64,000 nt of DNA from an uncultured delta proteobacterium (GTDB lineage: Bacteria; Desulfobacterota; Binatia; JACPRU01): assembly GCA_963745025.1 (NCBI GenBank), contig CAVUWD010000006.1, forward strand, positions 32,001 to 96,000, written 5' to 3'. This document shows, piece after piece, positions 22,762 to 44,994 of this stretch (the stretch's first letter is position 1; every line of letters begins with the position of its first letter). A program made the translations under genes and the position numbers. The notes beneath the pieces are model-generated. The model saw only the letters and a program-made list of their open reading frames with translations, was not told the DNA's origin and ran no database searches.

Positions 22762-22801
22762 CGCGACAGTGCCCTCGGGACTTGGTCGGGGCTGTAGCAG
22801 T

Positions 22802-23100
22802 GGACAGCCGGTTCAAGAGCCGGAAAGCTATATAACGGTCGATCTCGGACGCAAGCACTCCACATACCACGCCCCCCTTCGACGGGCGCACAAGCGGATG
22901 ACTTGAGTCGGGGGCGGCGGGCCCGAGGCCGCAGGATCCTCCGCACGATCACAGGTTCCTCGATCCCCGCAGTAGGCGCAGCCGGCCGCCGCCACCCCGG
23001 CCGTACACGTAGCGGGGTGCGAGGCTGCGACGGCGCGGCAGGGAAGGACCTCGACAGCAGGGAGCAAAGACCGGCGCGAAGGTCGGCGCCGCGGCCCAAC
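22802..23100 (-). mobile_element. Decayed IS91/ISCR-family end: transposase C-terminal remnant plus oriIS-like repeat (copy 1)
   Basis: Across frameshifts: RWAA...VFA..VEVLPCR...GGRLRLL..IEEPVIVRRIL..ASGPP, followed ~60 bp later by the dispersed repeat ending CTTGAACCGGCTGTCC. Confidence 0.65.
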
Positions 23101-23339
23101 GGCGGTCCAAAATGTAGTCAGTCCGCCGCCGTGGATTCGGCGTTCCGTTCGTGCATGACGGGGCGTGGCTATACGGTGAAGTGAGCGCAGGCTAGTATAC
23201 GGCCGTCCGTCTCTACGGTCCGCTCGAGCCGTGGTTCGGCAAGACGTGGAGCCCGGTAGAACAAGAGAGCCAAGAAAGGCCCGAGGATGAAAATGTCCGT
23301 GAGGACACTGAGTCACGCTGCAGTCATGGTTATGGGGTC

Positions 23340-23402
23340 TTCTCGATCTGGCTCGGCCCCAAGCCGCCTTCGGAGGACCTGAAGAAGGGGATGCTCGGCT
23401 GA
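23340..23402 (+). pseudogene. Chalcone-isomerase-like protein C-terminal fragment
   Basis: FSIWLGPKPPSEDLKKGMLG-stop. Confidence 0.55.
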
Positions 23403-23634
23403 TTCGCCAGGAATGTTGCGGGGGTCCCTGTTGCTCAGCGGCAGCGCCGTAGCCCTGATTTTGACATGGGGCTAGGCGGAGCTGGCGGGAGAGCGAAATG
23501 AGCCACTCGCAGGCGAGAGGGTGAAAACAAGTCGTAAACCGCCGGTCACAAGCGCTGGCAAGACAAGAGCCGAGCAGGTTAAAAAGTCGACATCAGGACC
23601 GTAAATTATAATAGGCCGGAGGAGGAGGCGAGAA

Positions 23635-26375
23635 ATGGCCGATACGAGTGTCGATGTCACTGAGCAAAAACGGTTGAACGAGGCGCGCGAGGCGCAAATC
23701 CCCTGGAAGAAATGGGGACCCTACTTGAGCGAGCGGCAGTGGGGTACGGTCCGCGAGGACTACAGCGATGACGGCAACGCCTGGGACTATTTCACCCATG
23801 ACCAGGCTCGTTCACGAGCCTACCGGTGGGGCGAGGACGGGCTCGGGGGAATCTGCGATGAGAAGCAACGGCTGTGTTTTGCGCTGGCCTTGTGGAACGA
23901 GCGCGACCCGATCCTGAAGGAGCGGATGTTCGGGCTCACCAACAGCGAGGCGAACCACGGCGAGGATGTCAAGGATTACTACTTCTACCTCGACAGCACG
24001 CCGACGCACTCCTACATGAAGTACCTCTACAAGTACCCGCAGCGTGAGTATCCCTACCGCGACCTTATCGAGACCAACCGGAGGCGATCTCGGGAAGAGT
24101 GGGAGTACGAGCTGCTCGACACCGGCATATTTGACGACGATCGCTACTTTGACGTTTTTGTCGAGTACGCGAAGGAGAGCCCGGAAGACATCCTCGTCCG
24201 CATCACCGTCCACAATCGCGGACCTGAAGCGGCTCGGGTGCGTGTCCTGCCGACATTTTGGTTCCGCAATACTTGGTCCTGGGGAGATGACGATCGAAAG
24301 CCTTCGCTGCGCGAGGCGGGGCCGGGCGTCATTCAAGCCGCACACAGTGAGCTCGGCGAGTACTGGATGCATTGCGATGGCAGCCCCGGAGTTGCTCTTC
24401 ACCGAGAACGAGAGCAACGCGCAGCGTCTGTGGGGCCAGCCCAATGCTTCTCCCTACGTCAAGGACGCGTTCCACCAGTACATCATCTCGGGACGCAGCG
24501 AAGCGGTGAATCCCGCCAAGGCGGGGACCAAGGCCGCGGCCCACTATGTCCTCGAGGTGCCCGGCGGCGGCAGCAAGACCATCCGTCTCCGACTGGCGGC
24601 CGCCAAGATAAAAGATGCCTTTGGCGGTTTCGAAGAGATATTCAAAAGCCGGATCGCCGACGCAGACGAATTCTACGATCGGATTACGCCGAATTCGCTG
24701 AACGAAGATCAGCGCCGAGTGCACCGGCAGGCGCTGGCGGGAATGCTGTGGGGCAAGCAGTACTACTACTTCGACCTGGAGCAGTGGCTGCGCGAGCACA
24801 AGAGCCATCCGCTGCTCGAATCCGTCCGCCATGACGTGCGCAACACGGAATGGTTCCACATGCTCAACAGCGACGTGATCTCCATGCCGGACAAGTGGGA
24901 GTACCCGTGGTATGCGGCCTGGGACCTGGCTTTTCATACGATTTCCCTGTCGCTGGTGGATTTCGATTTTGCCAAGGAGCAGCTGCTGCTGATGCTGCGA
25001 AGCCTCTACTTCCACCCGAGCGGGCAGATCCCGGCCTACGAGTGGAACTTCAGCGACGTCAATCCGCCGGTGCACGCCTTGGCCACGCTCTACCTGTACA
25101 GGTACGAGCGGTCGCTCGGCCGGGCGGACCTGCGTTTCCTGGAGCGCTCGTTTCAAGGATTGATGCTGAACTTCAACTGGTGGGTCAATCGCAAGGATCC
25201 GGCCGGGCGCAACGTCTTCGCCGGCGGCTTTCTGGGCCTCGACAACATTGGCGTCTTCGACCGCAGCGCGCAGCTGCCGACGGGCGGCTCGCTGGAACAG
25301 GCGGACGGCACCGCCTGGATGGCGTTCTACTGCCAGAACATGTTGGAGATGGCCCTGATACTTTGCGAATACGACCCGATGTACGAGGAGATCGCCTTCA
25401 AGTTCGTGCAGCATTTCATGTGGATCGCCTATGCCATGGATCGCCGCGGCGAGCATCACGATGAGATGTGGGATGAGCAGGACGGATTCTTTTACGATCT
25501 ACTGCGGCTCCCCGACGGCCAGGCGATGCGTCTAAAGGTGAGATCGCTGGTCGGGCTGTTGCCGTTGTGCGCGTCCACGGTGTTCGAGCCGGATTTTGTC
25601 GGGCGCTTTCCGCGGCTGATGGAAATGATCGGCCTGTTTCGCAAGCGCCATCCCGAGTTGATTTCCCACGTCGCCCCGACCGACGCCGGTTTCACTCGGT
25701 TATAAAGAACGGCGGCTGTTGTCGATCCTCAACAAGAATAAGCTCGAGCGCGTGCTCGCCTACATGCTCGACGAGAACGAGTTTCTCGGGCCGCACGGCA
25801 TTCGCTCTCTCTCGCGCTATCACCTGGAGCATCCGTTCGTGTTTCACGTCGGTGGTCAGGAATACAGAGTCCAGTACCTGCCGGCGGAATCGAATACCGG
25901 GATGTTCGGCGGCAACTCCAACTGGCGGGGGCCGGTGTGGATGCCGGTCAATACGCTGATCGTGCGGGCGCTCTTGAACCTGTACAGCTTCTACGGCGAT
26001 GAATTCAAGGTACAGTGTCCGACTGGTTCGGGGCGGTACATGACACTGTTCGAAGTGGCGGAGGAGATTGTCCGCCGGCTGGCGGGCACGTTCCTACGTG
26101 ATGCCGATGGGCGACGGCCGGTCTACGGCGGTACAGCCAAGTTCCAGGAAGATCCGCACTGGCGCGATCTGATTCTATTTTACGAGTATTTCCACGGTGA
26201 CAACGGCGCGGGGCTCGGGGCCAGCCACCAGACGGGCTGGACCGCTCTGGTGGCTCCCCTCCTGGACATCTTCGGGCGTGTCGATGCCAAACGCGCGCTC
26301 GAGAGCGAGCGCGGGGCCGTGGTCAGCCGGCTTATGAGGGAGCAAGTGGGCGGGGAAAAGGCGGGCGGGAAATAG
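23635..26375 (+). pseudogene. MGH1-like/GH63 glucosidase split by two +1 frameshifts (pseudogene or sequence error)
   Basis: [19 protein letters not shown]...SMPDKWEYPWYAAWD...[11 protein letters not shown] across three ORFs; extra bases near 24382 and 25695. Confidence 0.85.
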
Positions 26376-26388
26376 GAGTCGAATATTT

Positions 26389-26412
26389 GGGGGGATAGCC
26401 GCTGCAAGGGCC
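26389..26412 (-). repeat. Truncated copy of the oriIS-like dispersed repeat (copy 2)
   Basis: Plus strand GGGGGGATAGCCGCTGCAAGGGCC versus GGGGGATAGCGGCTACAAGGGCC in copy 3 (reverse complement). Confidence 0.6.
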
Positions 26413-26607
26413 AGCTCCTCGCAATGACAGGATCATTCATCTCCCTACGAAGTGGGGAAGTTATGAAATGCCTAATCCAAGACACGGAGCTGCCGAAGTG
26501 GGAGGTATGACCGAAAGTTGTGGATCGTGGAATCATCTACAGCAACGGTTAAGTAATGACGGCGACAATCTGAGGGAATTGGAGCGCGCGACCGGGGTCG
26601 AACTGGC

Positions 26608-28836: not shown

Positions 28837-29153
28837 GACTCTCGACTTATAGGCGAGCGCTCAACTTGACAAGAATCCGGCGGCCGTTCAGTCGGCGCCA
28901 CGACTACGGTAGCGCACCCGCTCAGAAGCTGCCCTTCTCCAGTCCGCTCCCAAGTCCCCTCCTACCGCGCCTGAGCGAGTATGCAGAGGGGTCAGCTGCA
29001 GGTGAGGGTGTGCGGTCGTGGGTTCGGATCGGGTGTCCGATCGGTTCAACCGTACCGATGGCAAAACCGCGTTGGTGATCTGCCGGCCGGTTGGTCCGCC
29101 GAGGGCGGGCCGTGGTAGCTTTCCCCGGATCGAAGCGAAGGGGGAGAGCGAGC

Positions 29154-29816: not shown

Positions 29817-29955
29817 AGCGGAGAGACATGGCGAGCGTGGCGAGAATTCTCGTGGCCAGGGGCCCTTGCGGCTCGAGCGGCGGCTGCACGGGCTCTGCCA
29901 AAGGCACCGCCACATGCTCGCATTCGGACTCGCGACGAGAGTAGTGTCCGTGCGC

Positions 29956-31116: not shown

Positions 31117-31231
31117 CGCGAGCGCATCGGCCACGGGGGAAAGCGCCTCGTAAACCGCCACAGGCTGACGTTTTTCAAGCCCGACCGTCTCTCTGCAAGG
31201 TATCACCCGCTGGGGAGGAGACGCTCGCCAT

Positions 31232-31351
31232 GTTCTGGGTTACGCCTGGTCCGAGAGAGATCTTCTTAGTGTTGACCGCGCACAACGCCAGCGCGGCGTA
31301 CACGTCGCTCGCGAACATCTGCGAGTCGTACAGCCAGGCATGTGTGAATCC
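31232..31351 (-). pseudogene. LLM-class oxidoreductase N-terminal fragment
   Basis: GFTHAWLYDSQMFASDVYAALALCAVNTKKISLGPGVT. Confidence 0.65.
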
Positions 31352-31428
31352 ACGCCAAATCCCTCGCTCCAGCGTTCGAGTACGTTGAATGTTACAGATG
31401 TAGCCCGTGACGTGCTACGTTTTCGCGA

Positions 31429-33615
31429 GTGAAACACATCGCGCTCGGCGCAGACGTCGGAAATCCGAGTCACGGCCAGAGGCCGGCTGAGGAGCGTTAC
31501 TTCATGGCCCTGGACGCCGGCGGCACGATGACGGACTGCGTGATCATCGACGACGCCGGGCGCGTGAGCCTCGGCAAGGCGCTCACCGATTGCGCCGACG
31601 AATCGACGAGCTTCCTCGACTCCGCGCGTGATGCCGCTGCCTACGGAAGCCTCGATCTCCGCGGGGTGTTCTCTCAGGCGAGCTCGATCATCTACGCGGG
31701 CACGATCATGCTGAACACGATCCTCTCTTACTCGGGCCAGCGCGTCGGCCTCCTCGTCACGCAGGGGATGGAGGACTATCTCACCCAGCAGCGCGCGGAA
31801 GGGTCGTGGCTCGGCCTCAGCTACGCGGACCGACTGCACTCGGTGACGCACTACAACAAGCCGCCGTACGTGCCGAGACGAAGGATCCGCGGGGTACGCG
31901 AGCGCACCGACATGACCGGCCGAGCGGTGATCCCGCTTCGCGACGAAGAGGTCAGCCGCCACGTCGCCGAGCTGCTCGGCGAGGGGATCCAAGCGCTCGG
32001 CATCGTCTTCGTCTTTGCATCGCTGAACCCTGCGCATGAAAAGCGGGCGAAATCGATCGCCGAAGCGATGGTTCGGGAGCGTGGCCTCGACGTCGCGGTC
32101 GTCACCTCCTCGGAGCTCGTACCGACGTTGAAGGAGTACACCCGTCTGACGAGCGTCGTTCTGCAGACCTACGCGGCGGAGCCGTCGCGCAAACAGTTCC
32201 AGCGCGTAGATGCGCGCGCCAAGGAGCAGGGCTTTCGCGGCGAGGTGCAGACCCTGCTCGCGCACGGAGGGGTCGCCGACATCAGTCACCCGCGTCTCTA
32301 CGAAGCCTTCGTCGCCGGTCCCATCGGCGGAATCCTCGGGGCGAAGTACGTCGGTGACGTGCTCGGCCTCGAGAACATCGTGGCCACCGACGTCGGCGGC
32401 ACGAGCTTCGACGTCGGCATCATCCGCCAGGGCGCGATCCCGGTGGAGCGCGAGCCAGTGCTGCTCCACAACCGGGTCAGCCTGCCGATGATTCACACGG
32501 TCTCGATCGGCGCCGGCACGGGGAGCGAGCTAGCGGTGAACCCGATCACCCACCGTCTCGAGATCGGCCCGAAGTCGGCGGGGCCCGACACCGGCCGCTG
32601 CTATCGGCATCCGCGGCCGACGATCAGCGACTGCAACGTCGCGCTCGGCTATTTAAATCCGGACTTCTTTCTCGGCGGCACCGTGAAGCTCGATCGCAGC
32701 CGGGCCATCGATGCGGTCTCCGCGCTCGCTGCCGAGTTCGGCAAGGACCCTTACGAGTTTGCCGCGGGTATCCTCGATGTTCTCCACGAGACCATGCGCC
32801 AGCACGTGACCAGTATGATTCTCGGCCGGGGATACGACGTCCGCGAGTATTCACTCTTCGCATACGGCGGCGGCGGGCCGATGCACCTTTGGGGCTACCA
32901 GCGCGGCATGGAGTTTCGAAGCGTCGTGACGTTCCCCTTCGCGGCCGTCTTCTCGGCCTTCGGGGTCCTCACCACCGACAGGATCTACCGCTATCACAAG
33001 GGAGTGATGGCGGCGTGTCCGCCGGGGGACGACGCCGTGTCGCGCGGCATCAAGGAGACGGCGGTCGATTCTCTGAACGCGGCCTGGGAAGATCTTCGCA
33101 GCCGGGCGCTCACCGATCTCGCGAAGAAGGGGCTCGACGAGCGCGACGTCGCGTTCCAACACTACGCCTACGTGCGCTACGGAACGCAGATCAACGATTT
33201 CGAGGTGCCGTTGCCGTTCGGACGGATCGACTCCGTCGCCGACCTTTCGCGCGTCGTCGAAGCCTTCGAGCGCGTCTACACCTCCCTCTACCCGAAAGCG
33301 GGGTGCTATCCCGAGGCGGGATACCTCATCATGGAGGTTGCGCTGAGCGCAGCCGTGCCGACGCCGCGCCCGCACCTGCCGCGGCTCGAGCTACGCGGCG
33401 AGCGGCCCTCGGAGGCCGCGCGCAAGGGACAGCGGCGCGTGTGGTGGTCGGGGGAATGGTTGCCCTTCCAGATACTCGACATGGAGCGCGTCGAGGCAGG
33501 GAACGTCGTGCCCGGACCAGCGATCTTCGAGGATCCGGCGACGACGCTCGTCGTTCCGCCGGGCCGGCGGGCGCGCTTCGACGACCGGCGGTTCATCTGG
33601 TTCGAAGCGTGCTGA
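31429..33615 (+). CDS. acxA: Acetone carboxylase-like beta subunit (hydantoinase A/oxoprolinase family)
   Basis: DAGGTMTD, YSGQRVGLLVT, DRLHSVTH, TDVGGTSFD, GGGGPMH. Confidence 0.85.
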   Translation: MKHIALGADVGNPSHGQRPAEERYFMALDAGGTMTDCVIIDDAGRVSLGKALTDCADESTSFLDSARDAAAYGSLDLRGVFSQASSIIYAGTIMLNTILSYSGQRVGLLVTQGMEDYLTQQRAEGSWLGLSYADRLHSVTHYNKPPYVPRRRIRGVRERTDMTGRAVIPLRDEEVSRHVAELLGEGIQALGIVFVFASLNPAHEKRAKSIAEAMVRERGLDVAVVTSSELVPTLKEYTRLTSVVLQTYAAEPSRKQFQRVDARAKEQGFRGEVQTLLAHGGVADISHPRLYEAFVAGPIGGILGAKYVGDVLGLENIVATDVGGTSFDVGIIRQGAIPVEREPVLLHNRVSLPMIHTVSIGAGTGSELAVNPITHRLEIGPKSAGPDTGRCYRHPRPTISDCNVALGYLNPDFFLGGTVKLDRSRAIDAVSALAAEFGKDPYEFAAGILDVLHETMRQHVTSMILGRGYDVREYSLFAYGGGGPMHLWGYQRGMEFRSVVTFPFAAVFSAFGVLTTDRIYRYHKGVMAACPPGDDAVSRGIKETAVDSLNAAWEDLRSRALTDLAKKGLDERDVAFQHYAYVRYGTQINDFEVPLPFGRIDSVADLSRVVEAFERVYTSLYPKAGCYPEAGYLIMEVALSAAVPTPRPHLPRLELRGERPSEAARKGQRRVWWSGEWLPFQILDMERVEAGNVVPGPAIFEDPATTLVVPPGRRARFDDRRFIWFEAC

Positions 33616-33637
33616 GGCAGAAAAGGAGTTCGCCACC

Positions 33638-35806
33638 GTGACAGCTTCGCACCATTCTCTACGCGATCTTCTCGAGGAGAGCGAGCGGCTGTATCGCGAA
33701 ACGGGATGCTACCGGGGCATCCGCGAGCTCGAGATCGCGCGCGGGGCGCCGCTCGAGTACGAGCGGCTGCACTCGCGGCTCCTCTCGACGGTGATCTCGA
33801 CGCGCGAGACCGTCAAGCACATCGCCGCCTCCCCCGGGACTCGCGAGGTCGGCGAGTTCGTGATCGCGCTTTACACGCCCGAGGGGGACGCCATCGCGCT
33901 GTCGACCGGGATTATGGTCCACGTGCATACGCTCTCGGAGTTCATCAAGTTCGTAATTCGCGAGGGCTACGAGGACGACCCGCGAATCCGCCCCGGCGAC
34001 ATCTTCGAGAACAACGAGTCGTGGGCCGGCGGCGTGCACACCCCCGACGTGCAAACCATCACGCCGATTTTCCACGTAGGCGAGCTGGTCGGCTGGGTCG
34101 GCAGCGTCACACACGAGCTCGAAACCGGCACCGTAGAGGGTGCGGGAGTGGTTCTCATGCAGGCGGAGCGCTTTGGCGAGGGGCTGCACGTGAGCGCCGA
34201 GAAGGTCGGCGAGAACGACGACTACCGCCGAGATTACCTGGTGCGCCTGCGAATGAACCTGCGCCACCCCGACTGGTGGATCCTCGACGGCAAGTCCAAG
34301 CTCGCCGGCATGATCATGGTGCGCGAGGCGGTGCTCAAGGTGATCGAGGAGTTCGGCCTCGACTTCTACCGCCGGGCGACACGCGAGCTGATCGAGGAGG
34401 GGCGGCGGAGCTTCCTCCGCCGCGTGCGCCGGACCTGCATTCCCGGTCGCTACCGCGCCACGCACCACCAGGTCTTCCGCTTCGCGAACGCACCGTATGT
34501 TCACCCCTTCGCCCGCAAGAACATGGGCCAGCTCGTGCCGATCGCCATCGATGTCGGGCGTGACGGGTCGCTCAGCATGGATTTTGAGGGGGCAAGCCGG
34601 TGGGACTTCCACCCGTACAACTGCACGCCGTCCGCGATGAACGGCGGCCTGTGGATCGCGCTCGTCCAGGTACTTGCCTACGACGGCCGCGTGAACGACG
34701 GTGCTTACCATGCCGTCCGCCAGAATCTTCCGAAAGGCTCGGTCGTGAACACGGACTATCCGGCCGCGGGCACCTCGATGAGCTGGTGGACGCTGATCCC
34801 GCTGTACAGCAACTGGGTGCGCCTCATGTCGATTGGCTTCTTCGCGCGCGGCTTCGTCGAGGAGGTCTTTCAAGGCACGCCGACGGAGGTCTTCAACAGC
34901 GCCGGCTTCGACCGGCTCGGGCGACCGACCGGAGTGTCGAACTTCGAGGCCGCGGCAGGGAGCTCGGGCGCACGTGCTGTGTGGGACGGGATCGACCACA
35001 GCCACCAACTCTGGAACCCCGAAGCCGTCGCCTCCGACATCGAAGTGTGGGAGATGGTGATCCCGAAAATCTACCTGGGCCGCGGCCTCTCGCGCGACCG
35101 TCACGGCATGGGCCGGTTCCGTGGCGGGACGAGCTGGGAGTCGGTTTACGCAATCCACGACACGTCGATGATGACTGTGATCATGGGAGGCGTGGACCAA
35201 GGCGGGATCGTCTTCCAGAAAGGGCTTTTCGGCGGCTACCCGAGCCCCGGACCCAGGTTTTTCTATGCCAAGGACACCAACCTCGCGGACCTCGTCGAGG
35301 CGGGAAGTGATTTGCCCCGTTCGATCGTCGAGTGCGAGCGCTGGCTCGCCGATGGAACACTCCGGGCGAAGCAGTTCGAGTTTTCCACTGGCCCCGTGTG
35401 GTCGCCCGCGCTGAAGGACGGCGATCTCGCCGGTCTCTACTATACGGGCGGAGCGGGCTACGGCGATCCGCTCGAGCGCGACCCCAGCCGGGTTCTCGAC
35501 GACCTTGAGATGGGCATCGTGTCCGCGGAGTTCGCGCGCAAGGCTTATGGTGTCGTACTGGGCATGGAGGGAGGCAGACACGTCGTGGACGCCGAGGCGA
35601 CCGAGACGCTGCGCGAGGAGCGCCACCGCGACCGGCTCGCGAGGGCCGTCCCGGTCGAGCAATGGTGGCACGAGGCGCGCGAGGCTGCGCGCCGACCCGA
35701 GGTCGAGGACGTGATCGTCGACATGTACCGAAAGTCGGCCGAGCTCTCCGCGAAGGTGCCCAAGGAATATCGAGAGTTCTGGCAGATCGAAGAGTGGCCC
35801 TACTGA
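33638..35806 (+). CDS. acxB: Acetone carboxylase-like alpha subunit (hydantoinase B family)
   Basis: IAASP, STGIMVHV, VHTPD and VTHE metal-ligand motifs, GGAGYGDPLERD. Confidence 0.85.
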   Translation: MTASHHSLRDLLEESERLYRETGCYRGIRELEIARGAPLEYERLHSRLLSTVISTRETVKHIAASPGTREVGEFVIALYTPEGDAIALSTGIMVHVHTLSEFIKFVIREGYEDDPRIRPGDIFENNESWAGGVHTPDVQTITPIFHVGELVGWVGSVTHELETGTVEGAGVVLMQAERFGEGLHVSAEKVGENDDYRRDYLVRLRMNLRHPDWWILDGKSKLAGMIMVREAVLKVIEEFGLDFYRRATRELIEEGRRSFLRRVRRTCIPGRYRATHHQVFRFANAPYVHPFARKNMGQLVPIAIDVGRDGSLSMDFEGASRWDFHPYNCTPSAMNGGLWIALVQVLAYDGRVNDGAYHAVRQNLPKGSVVNTDYPAAGTSMSWWTLIPLYSNWVRLMSIGFFARGFVEEVFQGTPTEVFNSAGFDRLGRPTGVSNFEAAAGSSGARAVWDGIDHSHQLWNPEAVASDIEVWEMVIPKIYLGRGLSRDRHGMGRFRGGTSWESVYAIHDTSMMTVIMGGVDQGGIVFQKGLFGGYPSPGPRFFYAKDTNLADLVEAGSDLPRSIVECERWLADGTLRAKQFEFSTGPVWSPALKDGDLAGLYYTGGAGYGDPLERDPSRVLDDLEMGIVSAEFARKAYGVVLGMEGGRHVVDAEATETLREERHRDRLARAVPVEQWWHEAREAARRPEVEDVIVDMYRKSAELSAKVPKEYREFWQIEEWPY

Positions 35807-35816
35807 GGAAGCCTCC

Positions 35817-36455
35817 ATGCAGAAGCGCAAGGAAGACGCTTACGAGCAGCATCACCCGCGGGAACTGATTCGCGACCTCGTCGCGCGCAAGCTCGACTGG
35901 CGGCAAATCAAGGAGATCCAGAGCGCCGAGAAGGACCCCGATCGCTTTGACAAGTACCTCTCCCTTCTGCAGGAACGCATGCCCTGGCCGGACACGATCC
36001 TGCTGCCGATTCACGACCATCTCTTCATCGTCGCCAACGACCGCGGGGTGCTGACCAAGACTCTGTGCGGGCAAGAGCTCGGCGACTGGCGCGAAAACTG
36101 GAAGCTTCGTGTGCTGATCCACGTGCGAAGGACCCGCCAGGAGCTGCTCGAGGTCTACGCCGAGAATGTGACGCTCGACCCGACGGTCGTCGAGCTGCGC
36201 GAGTTCATCTGCCCCGGCTGCGGGACGCTTCTCGACGTCGACGCGGTGCCGCCGCATTATCCGGTCGAGCGGGACTTCTTCCCCGATCTGCGGACCTTCT
36301 ACGAAGATTGGCTCGGGCGGGAGCTTCCCGTCGACGTCGGCGACTACGAGGAGCGCTCCGCAGAAGTCCTACGCACGTGGGCGCGCGGGAGTCGCGATGC
36401 TTCTCGGGTGCGGCCAGCCGGGTCAGCGCCTCACAGCCCGCGCGGCTCTTCGTAA
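35817..36455 (+). CDS. acxC: Acetone carboxylase gamma subunit
   Basis: KDPDRFDKYL, NWKL, REFICPGCGTLL, DFFPDL. Confidence 0.88.
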   Translation: MQKRKEDAYEQHHPRELIRDLVARKLDWRQIKEIQSAEKDPDRFDKYLSLLQERMPWPDTILLPIHDHLFIVANDRGVLTKTLCGQELGDWRENWKLRVLIHVRRTRQELLEVYAENVTLDPTVVELREFICPGCGTLLDVDAVPPHYPVERDFFPDLRTFYEDWLGRELPVDVGDYEERSAEVLRTWARGSRDASRVRPAGSAPHSPRGSS

Positions 36456-36847
36456 CCTTTTCTGCATCTCGCCGTTCGCGGGCGGCACCATCTGGGGGAA
36501 AAAAAAGAAAGGGTGGGCGACCGAGAGAACGATGAAGTCCTCTCGGTCGTGTTCTCGGTAGGCGGAATTGCCGGAACGAGATTCCGAGCGAACGCTCGCG
36601 ACTGCGAATCGCGCGAGGCTGGCGGGCCTCGGAGAGATACTCGCGTAGGTCGATATCAAATGGACCCGTCCCGCACGAAGTAGCTGCCACACGCGAAGTA
36701 CGCCGCCTTAAGTCTCGTTTCTGCATCTGGTCCTTTGCAGGCACATGATCGCGGCGCGGAATCGCGGCCGGTCCGTCGGTTACGCGATGGTGGCGCGCGG
36801 TGGTTACGCGGCTTCTCCCCTCTGCGGCCGCGTGTTACCTTCATGGA

Positions 36848-38187
36848 ATGCGAACCCGCATCCTGCGGATCGTCGCTCTCTCCGTGATCGCGCTCGCCGT
36901 TCCGCCCCGCGCCTTGGCCGAGCTCCCGCCCGTCGGAACAGTCGTCAACAAGGACAACGCCGAGAAGTACGGCGAGGTGCTGAACCCGACACAGCAGTAC
37001 ATGCTGAAGCACGGCGCCACGATGCCGGTCACCGAGTACCGCAAGTACGAGTGGCCGCCGGAGTACCAGGAAGCGACGGAGAAGTACTCGAGCCAGGTCC
37101 GCCTGAGCCCGGACGGCCGCGACATCGTCAACTACGTGGTCGGCGCGCCGTTCCCGCTCGTCGACGAGAACGACCCGCAGGCGGGCGCGAAATGGATGTG
37201 GAACCACGAGCAGGGGCCGAAGTACACCGACAACGTCGGCATCGGCTGGAACGTGGAGCTCGTCAACGACCGCGGCGAGCGCGAGCGCTTCTTCGGCTCG
37301 AACTTCTGGCGGCGCATGATGTGGCGCGGCCGGATCGTGCTCGATCCGAAGCCCGTCGTGCCGCACGATCCCGCAATCGGCTACTACCGAGCAGTGGGGG
37401 CCGCTGCACGACCCGAACGACCTGAAGGGCGCGGGCGCGCTCAACTTCCGCTACGTCTCGCCCGACGTGCCCGACGATACCTACTTCTATGTCCCGGAGC
37501 TGCGGAAGGTGCGCCGGATGTCGGTGGCGAACCGCTCCGACGCGTTCTGGGGGACCGACATCGACATCGACTCGATCTGGACGTGGAACTCGAAGCTCTC
37601 GTTCTGGACCTTCAAGTACCTCGGCACGCACAAGCAGCTCACGCGCGTTCCACTCGGGCGGCTACGGGCAGCGCGACGCGCTCTGCGCCCAGCCGGACGG
37701 CGCGTCGGGGATCAAGCCTTCTTCTGCTGCTTGAACCACGAGCTGCGCGACATCGTGATCGTCGAGGGCACGCCGACCGGCTTCAGCCAGTACGCGTTCA
37801 GCAAGCGCATCGTATACATCGACAAGGAGTCGCTGATGGCCCAGTTCAACGAGGGCTACGACCAGGGCGGCCAGCTGTGGAAGACGCTGGTACATGTACA
37901 GCGACGCGGGGAAGTCGCCGCACGACATCGAGCGCCAGCCCGACGGTTCGATCAAGGTCGTCCCGACCAAGACGGTGAATCCGCCGTCGCACGCGCACGA
38001 GCGCGTCGGCGCCTACCACGGCGGCGTGGTGGACATGCAGCTGAATCACGCCTCGAAGTGGGACGCGCCGGACGCCTACCTCTATCCCAATCCCGGCGTG
38101 GGGCACGGTTACGTGGACGAGCCGCGCGACTGGAACACCCCCGACACCTTCACGATCAACTACTTGATCAAGAGCGCGGGCTTCTAG
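36848..38187 (+). pseudogene. DUF1329-like periplasmic protein with about four single-base indels
   Basis: Signal peptide, GAPFP, YVPELRKVRR, YDQGGQLWK; frame changes near 37386, 37644, 37716 and 37887. Confidence 0.75.
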
Positions 38188-38383
38188 CGGAGCGGCGGCG
38201 TCCTTCTACGGCCCGTGCTCGGCGAAGGCGCTGAACTTGCCGTCTCGCGCGACGGCGAAGGCCTAGAGGTGACCGAGTCCTCGCGGCGGCGGGAACACCA
38301 TCACCACCATCACCCCAAGCCAGTTGACGAGTGCCTTGCACGCCCCATAGAAACGGGCGTTCCGAACGAGAGGGGCGTCCCGG

Positions 38384-38439
38384 GCGTCTGAGATGGACCC
38401 CTCTATGTAGCTTTCCGGCCCTTGTAGCCGCTATCCCCC
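38384..38439 (+). repeat. oriIS-like dispersed repeat (copy 3)
   Basis: GCGTCTGAGATGGACCCCTCTATGTAGCTTTCCGGCCCTTGTAGCCGCTATCCCCC. Confidence 0.8.
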
Positions 38440-38668
38440 AGCGTCGGAGAAACCGGACGATCTTGATGTGCTAGAAATCCCTCGCCCCGACGCGAGTGGA
38501 TAGGGCGTATGAACGTTCGAAGAAATTTGCCGGTTTCGAGCTTTTGGATCTAGTCAGAAGGCGGCTCTGTAGATAAAGACCTTCGGTGCGCCGGGGGCTC
38601 GGCCCCAGAACTGTCGTAGAGCACTCGAGTCCCCGTCATCGTTTGGTATCGTTCGCGTGCGCTGACCG

Positions 38669-39996
38669 ATGGCCTTCGTGATCCAGAAACTCGTCCTTCC
38701 CGTCCTCTGCTTCGCTCTAGCATTCCATCTCATCAGCACGTACGAGCGTCGCCGCGGTTCGGCTTCGGACTCCGATGCGACGATCGGTCAGGCTTTCGCG
38801 CTCACTGCACTGATCATCTTCGCGCTCTATGGAGCAGTCCCTCAGCTGTGGCCCTCCGCGGCGCAGCTTCTCACGCTCTTCGTTCTCCTGCTCGGCGCAT
38901 CGCAGCTCTACTTCTCGCTCCGGCGGGGTATCGGTTCGGCCCATTGAGTGCGGGAACGTCCAACGGCCGGAGCGTTCTCGTTATCGGAAGGAGCGCTGTG
39001 GTGCTGGCGGCGGCACGTGAAATCGAGCGCAGCGGCTACACCGTTGTTCGCTACTCGGGGCGCAACGGGGATGGAAGCTCGGGACAGTCGCTCCGTACGC
39101 TCGCGAGAGCCTCCGAGGTAGTCGCGGAAACGAAGATCGTGCGGATCATCGTGGGCCTGCGCTCCTCCGCCGAGGAGCTCCCGCTGCGCCAGCTACTCGA
39201 GCAACGGCTCGGTGGCGTCCCGGTGGAGACAGGCCACGAAGCGTATGAACGCCTGACTGGCAAGATCTTCCTCGATGAGAGAACGCCGCTGCATCTGCTG
39301 GTCTCGCACGCGTGTCTGAGCAGCCGTCTCTACGGCAGGATGAAGCGATGCGTGAGCGCGATCGTGGCCGCCGTGGCGTTGGTGCCGGCTCTCCCGGTGA
39401 TGGCGCTCATCGCTCTGTCCATCCATTTGGCCGACAAAGGGCCCGTACTCTTCGTCCAGGAGCGCGTAGGGCTGCATGGTCGGCCCTTTCGCCTGCTGAA
39501 GTTCCGCACCATGGGCGACAAGAAGGACACCTCCTCGGAATGGGAGCGGGACAACGAAAATCGCATCACCCCACCCGGCCGATGGCTGCGAAAGCTCCAC
39601 CTCGATGAGTTGCCCCAGCTCTGGAACATCTTGCGCGGGGACATGGAACTCGTCGGTCCCCGCCCGCATCCGGTCTCGAACTACGAGCTGTTCGCTCGCT
39701 CGATTCCGTACTACTCCCTCCGTTCCCTCGTCCGGCCCGGACTCACCGGGTGGGCCCAGGTGCGACAAGGCTACGCCCACGACCTCACGGGCGAGATCGA
39801 GAAGATGCGCTACGACCTCTGTGCGATCGCCCGACCGTCGCTTCGGCGCGACCTGTGGGTGCTTCTCGCGACCACGAAGATTCTTCTGCTGGGTCATCCG
39901 CTCGGAGGCGAGGCGGCGCGGACTGCCGAGAAGGCGGAGCGCGACGACAGCGTCGCCATTCCATTAATGATCCCCCGGCAAAGCCGGGGGAATTGA
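38669..39996 (+). CDS. Priming sugar transferase (polyprenyl glycosylphosphotransferase), probable frameshift near 38930
   Basis: TM N-terminal ORF 38669-38947, then FVQERVG, KFRTM, LDELPQLWNILRGDMELVGPRP, RPGLTGWAQV. Confidence 0.8.
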
Positions 39997-40240
39997 AGAT
40001 GTGAGCCGCTCAAAGCGGCTGGTCTGGGGGCCGCTCACGAGCGGCCGGTCATGCGCCGCCTGATGGCGGCGGGCGGCTACAGCAAGTTCAACTGGTCGAG
40101 GCGCTTGTCCTCTCGTCCATGGATAGGAACTCCCTTTCGTGTGCTTTGACCGGCTCACGGAGGGGAGTTCCATTCTCATGCTTCCGGAATTGTCAAACTT
40201 CGGCGGCCTCCCCGGCACAGTCGGGGGGACTCTCCTGATG
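39966..40240 (-). mobile_element. Internally deleted IS200-family miniature element
   Basis: Sub-terminal hairpins TCCCCCGGC-AAA-GCCGGGGGA and CTCCCCGGC-ACA-GTCGGGGGG; tnpA reduced to MDE joined out of frame to EDKRLDQLNLL-stop. Boundaries approximate. Confidence 0.75.
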
Positions 40241-40353
40241 TACTAGGCCGACGTGCTCAATTCCCACTTAACCGCGCGCGCCCTCAGTGCGCCAAACGCC
40301 AGAACGAAGCATGGTGTTCGTCCTGGCGCGCAAAGCGGAGGTGAGGCTCGTGC

Positions 40354-41115
40354 TTATAGAAGGTCTTTCAGGATGCGACCGTGTCCGAGCACGGCGTCGA
40401 ATGTCCCTGAGTAGCAGCCCAGCACTTCCAGCACCGGCAGCTTGTACCAGGGATCGACCGCCGACGGCGCGTCGTGGTGCAGCGAACCCGGGCCCGTCCA
40501 GATGTCGGGCAGACCGTTCGAACCCATGTGCGGTACGAGGTCCAGAGAACTGCCGATGAGCTGCGCCAGCGCCGGGCGTTTCGCCTCGGTGGCGCAGGGG
40601 ATGACCTTGAGCGAGATGCTCGGCGTGAGCTGGAAATCCTCGGTGCGGACCGGTGTGACATTGCGCATCACGGCCGTCATCAGCCGATTGCCGGTCGGGC
40701 GTTCGACCAGACCCATCATCACTTCGCTTTCGTGGCGTACTTGGATGTGCGCGAGCTTCTTGGCGAAGCCCCAGATTTCGCGGCCGCCGATCAAGGGTGC
40801 TTCGTTGTCGGTGAAGAGCGCCGGGTAGTAGCTGTACACCTGCCCCTCGAAGCGCGCTCGAATCGAGATCATGGCTTCGTGATAGGGGCCGAAGGTCGAG
40901 GCGCCGTAATGGGCCAGAATCACCGTGGCGGTCGCGGGACCGTCCAGCTCCAGATCTTCCGGCAGCCAGGCCGCCGCCGCATCGTCGTCGGTGCGGTAGG
41001 TGATGAACATCATCTCCATGTGGCGGTAGTAGAATGGCGGCTTCTGCACCGCTTCGCCGGTGACCGGCATGGTGGCGCCGTAGTGATCGAGCTTCAGTTG
41101 TCCTTTGCGTGCCAT
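40354..41115 (-). CDS. Acetoacetate decarboxylase family protein
   Basis: YRTD, GPYHEA, GGREIWGFAKKLA Schiff-base Lys motif. Confidence 0.88.
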   Translation of the reverse strand: MARKGQLKLDHYGATMPVTGEAVQKPPFYYRHMEMMFITYRTDDDAAAAWLPEDLELDGPATATVILAHYGASTFGPYHEAMISIRARFEGQVYSYYPALFTDNEAPLIGGREIWGFAKKLAHIQVRHESEVMMGLVERPTGNRLMTAVMRNVTPVRTEDFQLTPSISLKVIPCATEAKRPALAQLIGSSLDLVPHMGSNGLPDIWTGPGSLHHDAPSAVDPWYKLPVLEVLGCYSGTFDAVLGHGRILKDLL

Positions 41116-41135
41116 GGTGACTCCCTTTTGAAAGA

Positions 41136-41168
41136 GGATATCGCCTAAGAGGGCCGGAAAGCTACATA
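41136..41168 (-). repeat. oriIS-like dispersed repeat (copy 4)
   Basis: Plus strand GGATATCGCCTAAGAGGGCCGGAAAGCTACATA, 20 nt upstream of the decarboxylase ATG. Confidence 0.7.
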
Positions 41169-41438
41169 TGTTGACGGCGTTCTGTGATGCGGGCGGTGGG
41201 ACCTCGCTGCTGGACGATCAGCCGGATGCTCGGCCCTCCGCGCAGACCAGGCGAGCTCGATCGTCCCGGCGGCCGGAATCACGAAGCCTGCTCGACGGTA
41301 GCGCCTTGCTCGAAAAGCGGCCATCAAGCCTTCTGATAGGCCGAATTTCGCGGAACTAGTGCGCCGGTTCGGCGGACGGAGAGAAGCCCCGCTTGCATGG
41401 TGCGGGTCCCTCCGTTATCTCGCCAGCGGAGGTACGTG

Positions 41439-42320
41439 ATGGGGAGCACACAATCGAACGGCCTGGAGATCGCGTACGAGGAGATCGGTCCTCGCGCCGG
41501 ACGGCCGCTGGTTCTGGTGATGGGCCTCGGCGTCTCGCTCGTCTTCTGGGAAGACGAGTTCTGCGCGATGCTAGCCGAGCGCGGGCACCGGGTGATCCGC
41601 TTCGACAACCGCGACGTCGGCCGCTCGACCAAGCTCGACGCGCTCGGCATCCCGAACGTGATGGAGGCGATGACGGCGCTCGCGACCGGCAAATCGATCG
41701 CTGGGCCATATCTCCTGAGCGACATGGCGCGCGACACCATCGGTCTCATGGACGCCCTGGGGATCGAGCGCGCTCACGTCGTCGGCGCTTCGATGGGAGG
41801 CATGATCGGTCAGACGATGGCGATCGAACACCCACAGCGGCTGCGCTCGATGACGTCGATCATGTCGTCGACGGGGAGCCCGAGCGTTCCGCCGGGCAAG
41901 CCCGAGGCGATGGCGCTGCTGGTCCGGCCACCCGCGTCCGACCGTGCCGCGTACGTCGATCAGGCGGTGGAGGTTTGGCGGGTGATCGGCAGCCCGGGCT
42001 TCCCCTTCGACGAACAGCGCGTACGGGTGCGGGCCGCAGCGCACTTCGATCGTGGATACCACCCGCCGGGCGTCGCCCGCCAGCTCGTCGGTGTCGTCGC
42101 GTCGGGAGATCGGACGGCGGCACTGCGCAAGGTCTCGACACCATCGCTCGTGATCCACGGCGTGGACGACCCGCTCGTGCCAGTCGAGGGCGGGAAGGCG
42201 ACCGCGGCGGCCATCCCGGGCGCGCGCCTGCTCCTGATCGAAGGCATGGGACACGACATGCCGCGCGAGGCCTGGCCGCGGATCGTCGACGCGATCAGCG
42301 AGCTGACCGCCACGCACTAG
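41439..42320 (+). CDS. Alpha/beta hydrolase
   Basis: FDNRDVG, GASMGG, HGVDDPL, GMGHD. Confidence 0.9.
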   Translation: MGSTQSNGLEIAYEEIGPRAGRPLVLVMGLGVSLVFWEDEFCAMLAERGHRVIRFDNRDVGRSTKLDALGIPNVMEAMTALATGKSIAGPYLLSDMARDTIGLMDALGIERAHVVGASMGGMIGQTMAIEHPQRLRSMTSIMSSTGSPSVPPGKPEAMALLVRPPASDRAAYVDQAVEVWRVIGSPGFPFDEQRVRVRAAAHFDRGYHPPGVARQLVGVVASGDRTAALRKVSTPSLVIHGVDDPLVPVEGGKATAAAIPGARLLLIEGMGHDMPREAWPRIVDAISELTATH

Positions 42321-42721
42321 AGCACGAGCTTCCAGATCCAGATCACGACGATCGCGAGTTGGACGACGAAGAGCGTCGCGCGCACGAGCACCGCGGGCGG
42401 TGCAGTCGAGGCGATGTGCACCGCGGACTGCCCGAGCCGCGCGTAGAGCAGCGGCATGGCGAGACCGTCGGTGACGTCGCCCCGGCCCGCGACCGCGGCC
42501 GACAAGATCACCGCGCCGACCACGGGCAGCAACTCTACGCAGTTCAGATGCGCGCGCGTCAGCCGCTGGCCCAGCGGGTCGACGTCGGTGCCGGCGGGCG
42601 AGAAGGTGTTGACCGCCTTTCCGGTGCGCCGCGAGTAGATGACGCGGTAGTTCGCGAGCGAGAAGACGAGCAGGATTGTCCAGCCGGCGAACAAACAGAG
42701 CGCAACGAGCGATGGTGTCAT
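42317..42721 (-). CDS. MAPEG family membrane protein
   Basis: RLTRAHLNCVE, ARLGQSAVH, TM helices. Confidence 0.85.
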   Translation of the reverse strand: MTPSLVALCLFAGWTILLVFSLANYRVIYSRRTGKAVNTFSPAGTDVDPLGQRLTRAHLNCVELLPVVGAVILSAAVAGRGDVTDGLAMPLLYARLGQSAVHIASTAPPAVLVRATLFVVQLAIVVIWIWKLVL

Positions 42722-42911
42722 GTCTGCGAACCCCTCCTGGGAGACTCGGGTCAGCATGACACGGCACAATCGGATTCAAAAGAGTATTCGCGACTCGGGC
42801 GCTCCGCCGATCGCTCAGGACAGTTCTTGACGGATGTCCTCGGCACTTCCCCGGCAGCAGCGGGGGTAAACCCACCGCATCGGGTGCGCCGGTTTGGAAG
42901 GAAAGCGTCGC

Positions 42912-43045
42912 ATGGCTCGCGTGCCGTATCTCGAGAAGCCGGACCTGTCGGAGGTCGATCAGGACCTGCTGAAGCGTCCGATCTGGCTGTTCAAGGCCCT
43001 GGTGAACTCGCCCAATGCGGCACGAGCGTTCCATGGCCTAGGCAA
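42912..43045 (+). pseudogene. Carboxymuconolactone decarboxylase/AhpD-like N-terminal fragment
   Basis: MARVPYLEKPDL...LFKALVNSPNAARAF, then switches to unrelated sequence. Confidence 0.6.
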
Positions 43046-43139
43046 CATCGTGGTCCCCTCGCCCAAGGCCTACGTCAGCGCGGTCAACAAGCTCGGCAGC
43101 AAGATGGAGACGGTCAGCCCGCAGCATCAGCTCTCAGGT

Positions 43140-44870
43140 TCATTCCGGCAGGCCGGCCTTCAGCAGGGACTCGCAATGGTGTGCGAGGTCTGAATCGTGC
43201 CGGTAGCGCAGCAGCGGCACGCAGTGCTCGCGCACGGTGAAGCCCGGAATCCGCTTGAGTACTTCCGCGGCGTGGGCCGTCGCGCTCGGAACATTCCCCA
43301 GCTGGGCATGACAGGCGGCGAGCAGGGCGTGATGCAGGCTGTCCGGCGTGCTGATGTGCTGAAGAGATTCGATCGTCTCAGCGTAGCGCTTGGCGACGAA
43401 GTAGGCGCGCGCCAGATGGAACCAGAAGCGCTCCGGGTGATACGGGTTGAGGCGCATCGCCTTGCGGATCCAATCGATCCCTTCTTCCCCCTGACCCAGC
43501 CAGGTGAGGATTTCCCCCTGCTGCACCACGATCAGGTCGTCGTTCGGGTTGAGGGCGAGCGCGCGCTGCTGGTGGAAAACCGCCTTGTCGAGGTCGTTGC
43601 GCACCACGGCCAAGGCCGCGAGGATGCGGTGCACGTCGCTGTCGTTGTCGTCCAGTCCGAGCGCGACCTCGAGCTCGCGCTCGATCACGGTTTCGGTCGC
43701 GGCGCGATCCTGGCACCAACCGTGACCCCATTGCTGGCCGAGGATGCACGCGTACCAGGCATGCGCGTGCGCGTACTGGGGGTCCAGCTCGATGGCGCGC
43801 CGGATCAGGCCGACCGCCCTGACATTGTCGTCGCGATTGGACCGGTGGTGCAGGACCTTGGCCTCCAGCACGCACTCGTAAGCGGCCATGTTGCCGGTCG
43901 GCTTGCGCTCGGCGCGGCCGCGCGCCGCGGCCTCGACGCGCCCGGGTAGCGTCGCCACGATGGCGGACGTGATCTCGTCCTGGATCGCGAAGATGTCCTC
44001 GAGATCCCGGTCGTAGCGCTCGGCCCAGACCTGGTGGTCGGACTCGGCGTCGATCAGCTGCACGGTGACCCGCACCCGGTTGGCCGCGCGGCGCACGCTG
44101 CCCTCGATGACGTACTGGATGCCGAGTTCGCGCGCGATCTTCTTCACCTCCACCGCCTGGCCCTTGTACTTGAACGAGGTATTGCGCGAAATCACGAACA
44201 GGTCCCGGAAGCGCGACAGGTCGGTCAGGATGTCCTCGGTCAGCCCGTCGGCGAAGAATTCCTGTTCGGCCGCGCCGCTCATGTTGGCGAACGGGAGCAC
44301 GATGATCGACGGCTTCGTGTGGGACGCCGTCGCCACGACCCCGGCGCGGGCCGGAGGGGCATCCGCGACGATGCGGTAGACGCGCACGCCGCCGGCGATG
44401 TTCTTCAGTTCATGCTCGCCGAGGTCCTCGAACGTGAGTTCGAGCTTGCGATGCACCTCGTCGTGGATCTTGGCCGAGACGCAGATTCCACCTGGATGGG
44501 CGAGCGCTTCGACGCGCGCCGCGATGTTGACGCCATCGCCGTAGATCCGGTCCCCCTCGACGACGAGGTCGCCGAGGTTGACGCCGACCCGGAACGCCAT
44601 GCGCCGCGCCTCGGACAGCTTCGCATTGCGTGCCCCGAGTTCCGCCTGCAGCGCAAGCGCCGCATTGACTGCGTCCACGGCGCTGCCGAATTCCGCGAGG
44701 ATGTTGTCCCCCGGCATGTCCACCACGCGCCCGTGCTGGGACGCGACAATCCCCGCAATGACACCCCGGTATTCCGACAGGGTGCGCACGGTGGCAAGCT
44801 CGTCGGCGCCCATCAGGCGGCTGTAGCCCGCGACATCGGCACTCAGTATGGCTGCAAGGCGGCGCTGCAA
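43140..44870 (-). CDS. Adenylate/guanylate cyclase + TolB-N-like + TPR protein
   Basis: RRLAAILSADVAGYSRLM, GDGVNIAAR, PSIIVLPFAN, TPR repeats. Confidence 0.92.
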   Translation of the reverse strand: MQRRLAAILSADVAGYSRLMGADELATVRTLSEYRGVIAGIVASQHGRVVDMPGDNILAEFGSAVDAVNAALALQAELGARNAKLSEARRMAFRVGVNLGDLVVEGDRIYGDGVNIAARVEALAHPGGICVSAKIHDEVHRKLELTFEDLGEHELKNIAGGVRVYRIVADAPPARAGVVATASHTKPSIIVLPFANMSGAAEQEFFADGLTEDILTDLSRFRDLFVISRNTSFKYKGQAVEVKKIARELGIQYVIEGSVRRAANRVRVTVQLIDAESDHQVWAERYDRDLEDIFAIQDEITSAIVATLPGRVEAAARGRAERKPTGNMAAYECVLEAKVLHHRSNRDDNVRAVGLIRRAIELDPQYAHAHAWYACILGQQWGHGWCQDRAATETVIERELEVALGLDDNDSDVHRILAALAVVRNDLDKAVFHQQRALALNPNDDLIVVQQGEILTWLGQGEEGIDWIRKAMRLNPYHPERFWFHLARAYFVAKRYAETIESLQHISTPDSLHHALLAACHAQLGNVPSATAHAAEVLKRIPGFTVREHCVPLLRYRHDSDLAHHCESLLKAGLPE

Positions 44871-44940
44871 TGCGTTCCCTCGATCCTAGGACCCGGCCGA
44901 TATTATGTCGGATGCGGGTATCCGGGACTTACGCCGCGGA

Positions 44941-44994
44941 GGATAGCGGCTACAAGCGCCGGCGGAAAGCTACATACCGGTCGATCTCAGACGC
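44941..44994 (-). repeat. oriIS-like dispersed repeat (copy 5)
   Basis: Plus strand GGATAGCGGCTACAAGCGCCGGCGGAAAGCTACATACCGGTCGATCTCAGACGC. Confidence 0.8.

Follow-up and report, generated by a model that had tools for sequence, protein, structure and literature searches.

Introduction

Why does one short DNA sequence recur in front of several unrelated genes within a small part of a bacterial chromosome? The question is raised by a 64-kb stretch of an uncultured delta proteobacterium (positions 32,001 to 96,000 of contig CAVUWD010000006.1, assembly GCA_963745025.1; hereafter the window), in which a repeat occurs five times. The window is chromosomal, with thrS-infC-rpmI-rplT-pheST and a tRNA gene present. 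The original prediction, made from the same DNA, regarded the repeat as an oriIS-like end of IS91/ISCR transposons, kept as a portable promoter or acting as a gene-shuffling device. Here we describe the repeat in this genome and in a relative. Judging from its position and orientation, it probably acts as a portable promoter, and we see about an even chance that it is a low-copy family of 95-120-nt intergenic modules of the kind called putative mobile promoters (PMPs). PMPs, catalogued in 2012 by Matus-Garcia, Nijveen and van Passel, are stretches upstream of non-paralogous genes that share at least 80% identity along 50 nt or more; more than 4000 families have been listed, and their movement is unexplained (commentary PMC3575422).

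Results

The five copies in the window, c1 to c5, are listed below together with the parts of the unit that each retains.

22802-22894, minus strand: c1, full length (CTTG and GC hairpin at about 22894-22869, block A at 22837-22852, 33-nt core at 22802-22834); nhmmer E 2.9e-22, the copy itself having been used in building the profile
26393-26414, minus strand: c2, 3′ part of the core only, namely its last 22 nt (CTGGCCCTTGCAGCGGCTATCC)
38335-38436, plus strand: c3, full length (CTTG and hairpin at 38335-38362, block A at 38384-38399, 33-nt core at 38404-38436); nhmmer E 7.1e-22, this copy too having been used in building the profile
41136-41168, minus strand: c4, 33-nt core only (blocks B and C), 29/33 (88%) identical to c3
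44941-44994, probably to about 45056, minus strand: c5 (block A at 44979-44994, core at 44941-44976 with a 3-nt insertion, degenerate hairpin-like CGTCCG...CGGGCG toward about 45056); nhmmer match 45056-44937, E 1.1e-19, for a copy again used in building the profile

All five sites lie where the original prediction had placed them or a few bases away. The 33-mer that it quoted occurs exactly at 38404-38436, but has no second match in the window at up to three mismatches, the other copies having diverged: the core of c1 agrees with that of c3 at 27/33 positions (82%), and c3 and c5 agree at 15/20 plus 32/36. The repeat is real and beyond chance. Allowing one mismatch, TAGCTTTCCGG was found four times in the window versus 0.65 expected, a number reached in none of 100 shuffles, and the 22-mer CCGGCCCTTGTAGCCGCTATCC, allowing three, was found three times versus 0.00 expected. 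The latter matches include the partial copy c2, which has three mismatches to the 22-mer (0 expected, 100 shuffles) and an nhmmer E of only 0.34; the 22-mer matches show c2 to be genuine. Block A (GCGTCTGAGATCGACC) is not significant when searched alone (4 matches versus 2.08 expected, with 13 of 100 shuffles reaching 4), and three of its four matches stand in register, in c1, c3 and c5. Searching the window with an eight-copy profile revealed no additional copies.

We then have six copies from a second genome. An exact-pattern scan of 185,579 species genomes, which do not include the source genome of the window, with TAGCTTTCCGN{3,6}CTNNNANNNGNTRTCC (any change at a specified position escapes detection) returned 14 loci. 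Four of them come from one metagenome-assembled genome (MAG), 'uncultured delta proteobacterium MFD10007.bin.2.30' (CAVQIG01), where loci L003 and L008 overlap; the whole MAG has four exact-pattern sites. The other ten are single matches in unrelated taxa, and since similarity is absent from their flanks and the profile matches none of them significantly (best E 0.34 over 154 kb), we consider them chance matches, which leaves one other genome in the scan that carries the repeat. To the copies in the fetched MAG loci the eight-copy profile added two diverged ones, neither used in the profile, at L008:209-313 (E 2.1e-10) and L007:816-921 (E 3.3e-7), bringing the MAG total to six (L2, L7a, L7b, L8a, L8b and L8c) and the whole sample to eleven. 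A blastn search of a plasmid collection with c3 gave only two 25-nt Rhodococcus matches (E 0.3). Copies are few and lie close together: a 22-kb part of the window holds five, and in the MAG a 13-kb part holds three and a 10-kb part two. From these searches the repeat appears to be restricted to one lineage.

One pair of copies is orthologous. L007:1-1071 aligns with window positions 21986-23049 at 90.6% identity, so that L7b (L007:816-921) is the orthologue of c1. Filtered tblastx between the window and the fetched MAG loci found only this dehalogenase region in common, and the unfiltered comparison gave compositional noise only. Synteny is broken about 250 nt upstream of the c1 orthologue (L007:1206-3031), where DUF6788 and DDE_5 transposase genes stand at the break, which suggests the insertion of an insertion sequence or a rearrangement.

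Aligned with their flanks, the copies define a full unit of 95-120 nt. The original prediction had drawn it too short: c1, c3 and, in degenerate form, c5 run about 45-70 nt further in the 5′ direction and contain a GC hairpin. Read from its 5′ end, the unit consists of CTTG, directly followed by the GC-rich hairpin (CGCCC, loop GTCGAAA, GGGCG); a spacer of 15-35 nt, variable and not alignable among copies; then block A, GCGTCYGAGATCGACC; 2-6 nt of linker; and the 33-nt core, TATGTAGCTTTCCGG-CNCTTGTAGCCGCTATCC, after which similarity ends. The abrupt stop at the CTATCC end was correctly noticed before: every copy has the TATCC boundary, and the sole extra is a recurrent C two bases later, the bases that follow TATCC being nearly all different (ACTG, CCCA, TCCG, TCTT, GCAA, TGCG, TCAG, TCCG, ACCG). 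Also present, as reported, are a −10-like TAGCTT box, kept in 8 of the 11 copies, and TTGCGT-N18-TAGCTT in c1.

The full unit is found in c1, c3, L8a, L8b, L8c and L7b and, degenerate, in c5. The remaining copies form a series that shares the 3′ end, with L2 and L7a running from block A onward (no hairpin), c4 retaining the core only and c2 its last 22 nt. The GC hairpin lies 70-95 nt from the TATCC end in six to seven copies, and there is a 4-bp stem within the core. On the 5′ side of c3, inspection reveals about 12 nt of further similarity to c5 and L8c, reaching GTTGACG at 38323. The ends of the unit are not inverted repeats of one another; rather, the 5′ CTTGTGCGCC has a similar sequence in the same direction, CTTGTAGCCGC, close to the 3′ end. 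Inspection of the aligned copies found no terminal inverted repeats, and no target-site duplications flanking them, the 5′ boundary being fuzzy.

Eleven copies from two genomes share their blocks, identically ordered, along about 100 nt, which indicates that the copies are homologous, not convergent. The extended homology shows that the unit was copied from site to site while its neighbours stayed behind.

Relative to genes, the unit shows a strong bias in position and orientation. Counting c1 and L7b once, there are ten independent loci; at nine the TATCC end faces a co-oriented start codon, and at eight the distance is 7-70 nt. The faced genes, and the distance from the end of the unit to their starts, are as follows.

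c1: haloalkane dehalogenase (NF002043, 435 bits), ATG at 22761, 40 nt
c4: acetoacetate decarboxylase (PF06314, ADC), ATG at 41115 preceded by GGGAG, 20 nt
c5: cyclase-TPR gene, TTG start at 44870, 70 nt
L8a: DUF2092 gene, 18 nt
L8b: ABC transporter gene, 48 nt
L8c: luciferase-like oxidoreductase, named by reading the translated start and not by family search, 45 nt
L7a: open reading frame (ORF) of 170 aa, followed by an OmpA-family gene, 38 nt
L2: non-ribosomal peptide synthetase of 2110 aa, GTG start, 7 nt
c3: frameshifted sugar transferase (Bac_transf domain), ATG at 38669, 232 nt

The distances of about 40, 20 and 70 nt that had been given earlier for c1, c4 and c5 are confirmed. By family searches (by reading for the L8c gene) the genes downstream of the copies are mutually unrelated. 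Against a null of 50%, nine of ten corresponds to a binomial P of about 0.011 (our own calculation). All four copies that lie between tandem genes face the downstream start, and where the flanking genes diverge (five intergenic regions) the unit always occupies the edge on the side of the gene to which it points; the intergenic regions that hold copies are 190-870 nt long, with the unit at the gene-proximal edge. Orientation follows the neighbouring gene and not one strand, c3 and its gene both being on the plus strand.

One further site resembles the start of the core motif:

29115-29124, plus strand: GTAGCTTTCC, co-oriented with a DJ-1/PfpI gene (PF01965) whose likely ATG (29155) follows after 30 nt

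A small GC hairpin stands just before this site, and block C is absent. It is the only one of nine occurrences of TAGCTTTCC in the window and the MAG loci that lies outside a recognised copy, and may possibly be a heavily decayed copy or a separate use of the same −10-like motif.

Because position and orientation are biased to start codons, we suggest that the unit provides or tunes the transcription of the gene toward which it points. The portable-promoter part of the original prediction is plausible and fits these data, nine of ten loci facing gene starts and eight of them within 70 nt; promoter activity itself is only inferred. In the mechanism we propose, the module would be copied, without its neighbours, to a place just upstream of unrelated genes, and its core would hold the promoter of the downstream gene. 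TAGCTT would be the most likely −10 element, with transcription starting about 7 nt after it, in CCGGC. Block C, with its small CGGC/GCCG hairpin, would then form the common first 25 nt or so of each mRNA, in leaders of about 30-95 nt. Alternatively, transcription may start just past TATCC. TAGCTT, which also stands before the DJ-1/PfpI gene, has A at position 2 and T at position 6 of a −10 hexamer, and the last base of the alternative hexamer, TATCCN, varies; outside the alpha-proteobacteria −7T is found in 90-99% of promoters, according to PMC7703639. Elsewhere in the window, TTGACA-N17-TAGGCA (55024-55052, minus strand), about 55-90 nt upstream of a tRNA gene (54893-54964), is likely a housekeeping promoter, whose −10 starts with TAG as does TAGCTT of the repeat.

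Several observations weigh against a promoter role. A consensus sigma-70 scan around c1, c3, c4 and c5 gave no promoter-like site. TTGCGT-N18-TAGCTT agrees with only 6 of the 12 consensus bases, and its TTG is present in only three copies. Insertions and deletions between the blocks (+2 to +6 between A and B, +3 between B and C in c5) would disturb strict promoter spacing, and the contiguous conservation of 33 nt, including the would-be spacer, exceeds what a sigma factor needs. At two sites the position itself is unfavourable: c2 has no start codon downstream and faces the 3′ end of a convergent GH63-like gene (stop codon at 26375), and the closest plausible co-oriented start for c3 is the one 232 nt away. 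Finally, in the orthologous pair c1/L7b the core is 25/33 identical (76%), next to 70% for the upstream intergenic DNA, 79% from the end of the element to the ATG and 95% for the coding sequence; because the core is no better kept than the adjoining non-coding DNA, this copy is without visible purifying selection.

Other signals were considered and rejected. For a sigma-54 promoter the spacing from GG to TTG in the core is 3 nt, where the consensus requires about 8. An extracytoplasmic-function-type GGAAAG-N16-TC(A/G)(G/A)A on the opposite strand does not suit its context, as transcription would run away from the adjacent gene and, at c3 and c5, antisense to the genes upstream. A possible lead is the likeness of GCCGCTAT and GGCGATAT to a sigma-28/sigma-D-like −10, GCCGATAA/T; against it stand an ill-fitting −35, the 3-nt insertion of c5, which spoils the spacing, and downstream genes unconnected with motility. 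The DnaA-box-like end (CTATCCNC, compared with TTATCCACA) is likewise a short resemblance with the wrong spacing, structure or context, as are those to the 5′ part of a tRNA, REP/RAYT GTAG motifs, Tn3- and Tn7-type ends, integron attC/attI, shufflon sites, T7-like promoters and TnpB omega-RNA scaffolds.

A location upstream of start codons would also suit an RNA that works in cis, the core being a structured regulatory 5′ leader, a riboswitch-like element or a small RNA gene, and a small CGGC/GCCG stem is indeed predicted in 8 of 10 aligned copies. RNAalifold, however, found only this 4-bp stem, with no covarying pair and a consensus energy of −2.36 kcal/mol; single-sequence folds of both strands gave z-scores of −0.01 to 0.60 against shuffles; and at Rfam gathering thresholds the window contains tRNA only, the best hits in E-value mode being 2.1 (c3) and 4.5 (L8a). 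With no covariation, fold z-scores at shuffle level and no Rfam match, structured RNA was rejected, and we hold this explanation to be highly improbable.

Conservation within the unit speaks for the main reading. The c3 core is 32/33 identical to those of L8a and L8b, in another genome and at non-orthologous places, while block A plus linker agree at 11-12/20 and the spacer is unalignable; because of this gradient we regard the core as the constrained part of the family. L8a and L8b are identical in the core (33/33) and nearly so in block A (17/18), with similarity spanning from the hairpin to TATCC. The well-kept copies may be either young or under selection, and the old c1/L7b copy is decaying in both lineages. 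This evolutionary comparison draws on one orthologous pair and on about 119 kb of two genomes (the 64-kb window and 55 kb around the MAG copies).

The units might instead be a selfish miniature repeat, behaving like a miniature inverted-repeat transposable element (MITE), mobilised by an unspecified enzyme and without a role in expression. The bias toward gene starts would then come from insertion preference, for instance for melted promoter DNA, or from tolerance, with loss by selection elsewhere. The lack of extra conservation in c1/L7b (76% versus 70-79% for flanking non-coding DNA) agrees with this, and so does the fact that non-orthologous copies in different genomes (32/33) are closer than the orthologous pair (25/33), as fits recent copying from conserved sources; clustering of the copies and the existence of degenerate or partial ones (c2, L8c and L7b) point the same way. 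But no terminal inverted repeats or target duplications were seen by inspection, the copy number is very low for a MITE, and tolerance by itself would hardly produce an orientation bias of 9/10 together with eight loci no more than 70 nt from a start. All in all, we think a purely selfish repeat rather unlikely. The specific case of a MITE of a DDE insertion-sequence family is unsupported, since the ends are not inverted copies and no flanking duplications were found by inspection.

The assignment of the repeat to IS91/ISCR elements found no support in comparison with genuine members. Six transposases (of ISCR1, ISCR2, IS91, IS1294, a Paraburkholderia member and an ISCR3-like member) were compared by tblastn with the window and L002, L007 and L008, with a best E of 0.21, and a Pfam scan of 80 ORFs from the window and the MAG loci found no Y2_Tnp. 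The sole transposase found is of the DDE type (L007:1634-3031). Linkage to an IS91-type tnpA, which for a member would be expected about 100-250 bp from the ori end on its upstream side in at least some copies, was found for none of the 11 copies in the roughly 119 kb examined.

For the terminal sequences we used the ends of ISCR1 from pCTX-M3, ISCR2/ISVsa3, IS91 and IS1294, the ISCR1 end being placed by the 232-bp oriIS region (PMC6218425) and the IS91 end by the coordinates in supplement file 5 of PMC13181058. All four have TTCCTAT, followed by A or C, whereas the repeat has CCGCTAT. The end pattern TTG.A....CTAT.C, on which the original prediction had relied, is not that of real IS91, IS1294, ISCR1 and ISCR2 ends, none of which has G at the third position. 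At the 11 columns that are invariant among the four ends the repeat matches seven, and four of these seven are the CTAT anchor. In a CTAT-anchored comparison over 38 columns, the repeat and the known ends share 11-19 identities and the known ends share 15-25 with one another. The best likeness is to IS91 (19/38, in c1, L8a and L8b), with a shuffle P of 0.014 before correction for four comparisons; likeness to ISCR1, ISCR2 and IS1294 is at shuffle level (P 0.26-0.61), and a null from 98 CTAT sites of the window gave a similar picture. The IS91 family requires a specific tetranucleotide flanking the ori end (PMC13181058, PMC5737581). No constant tetranucleotide of the CTTG, GTTC or GTCC type follows TATCC in the repeat, only the recurrent C two bases on. 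Because the transposase, end-sequence and tetranucleotide tests all fail, IS91/ISCR membership is unsupported, and we found no evidence for a gene-shuffling device.

The architecture is nonetheless compatible with some form of HUH-type mobilisation, the unit being asymmetric, with a palindrome beside a tetranucleotide at one end, a sharp boundary at the other and copies shortened from the 5′ side. In IS91, a subterminal palindrome lies right beside the tetranucleotide at terIS, oriIS has subterminal palindromes too (one or two), some 82 bp of this end are sufficient and no target duplication is made (PMC13181058); in ISCR1, the oriIS region contains outward promoters and adjoins variable genes (PMC6218425). 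Like oriIS ends as described in these texts, the repeat is asymmetric and has a sharp boundary at CTAT plus 2-4 nt with variable co-oriented genes beyond it, about 80-100 nt being sufficient. Its subterminal palindromes and the lack of visible target duplications may be further likenesses, neither feature being specific to IS91. Unlike those ends, it has no attached Y2 transposase, no invariant TTCCTAT and no fixed flanking tetranucleotide, and its overall likeness to them in sequence is marginal.

The units may be pictured as non-autonomous ends or miniatures of a rolling-circle transposon, of the IS91/ISCR type or another HUH type, in which the TATCC end would be oriIS, CTTG with its hairpin terIS, a Y2 transposase with its gene elsewhere in the genome would act in trans and promoter activity would be a by-product. 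The asymmetric ends, without terminal inverted repeats or target duplication by inspection, speak for this, as does the hairpin beside CTTG, which recalls the terIS architecture of IS91 (PMC13181058). So do the fixed 3′ end of copies that miss their 5′ part (c4, core only; L2 and L7a, no hairpin), the better preservation of both termini than of the middle and the decay of the old orthologous copy, as expected of a selfish element. The anchored identity to IS91 (19/38) and the outward promoters known from the ISCR1 oriIS region (PMC6218425) may be added. Set against these are the absence of any IS91-family transposase or fragment from the 64-kb window and the 55 kb around the six MAG copies, CCGCTAT in place of the invariant TTCCTAT, the shuffle-level likeness to three of the four known ends and the missing CTTG- or GTTC-like constant tetranucleotide after the end. 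An orientation that follows the neighbouring gene is not predicted by plain transposition, and four exact-pattern sites in a whole MAG are few. We regard a rolling-circle origin as unlikely, and its combination with a promoter role, in which a miniature, transposase-less HUH/IS91-like element is copied in trans and retained before start codons for its promoter and leader, as decidedly unlikely.

Some features of the neighbourhood are recorded here in their own right. Three genes are split over two or three frames, and may be either pseudogenes or products of long-read homopolymer errors.

23635-26375: GH63/MGH1-like glycoside hydrolase
36745-38234: DUF1329 gene
38669-39996: Bac_transf sugar transferase

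The glycoside hydrolase gene lies in a region of lower GC (23200-26600; 58-61% versus 66% for the window), between the same-orientation copies c1 and c2, and fragments of the start of such a gene occur in the MAG between two repeat copies (L008:12043-12150 and 12400-12466). An apparent 'second repeat' at 23650-23758 was dismissed, being the coding start of the GH63-like gene with these MAG fragments. Runs of CCGGTAG-type heptamers, inverted and repeated (e.g. GGCTACCGGCTTCCGACTACCGACTGCCC), occur at 51562-51643 and 52058-52095, on both sides of the L20 gene in the infC-rpmI-rplT operon. An acetone carboxylase-like cluster (hydantoinase A, hydantoinase B and gamma subunit; 31429-36455) lies 4 kb away from the acetoacetate decarboxylase gene (40354-41115), with genes for an ADP-forming acyl-CoA synthetase and a permease near it, which suggests a ketone-metabolism neighbourhood.

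Discussion

The repeat has much in common with PMPs, as highly similar non-coding stretches before non-paralogous genes of one genome, some families of which are common to related taxa. L8a and L8b, upstream of DUF2092 and ABC transporter genes, have the identity by which PMPs are defined. Neither PMPs nor the repeat match Rfam. The two differ in that PMPs were defined on the region from −150 to −50 and mostly come as pairs, whereas the repeat has at least 5-6 copies per genome, defined blocks, a 3′ boundary that is sharp and stands 7-70 nt before the start codon, and members shortened at the 5′ side. A literature search for the motif strings gave only unrelated primer matches, as judged by titles.

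Correia elements, ERIC and REPIN also are short repeats of intergenic DNA, able to provide promoters or alter the expression of adjacent genes. They have terminal inverted repeats or strong palindromes and a high copy number, whereas inspection and the genome scan found neither in our repeat. All three are named in PMC3575422. Since the phenomenon has been catalogued since 2012, the value of the present family would be that of a clean, well-bounded example and not of a new principle.

Proof that rolling-circle transposition is involved would be of greater interest: miniature IS91-type promoter carriers are not known to have been described, and none appeared in literature searches limited to oriIS/terIS/IS91 and the motif. 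If the unit were a rolling-circle miniature, an uncultured high-GC 'delta proteobacterium' lineage would have domesticated it as a promoter-delivery device.

If the repeat is a working promoter, it would illustrate transcriptional rewiring by the copying of a ready-made promoter and leader to a place before unrelated genes. The genes rewired in this uncultured lineage would span catabolism, signalling and secondary metabolism, and the defined 33-nt sequence would be a candidate portable expression signal for high-GC bacteria.

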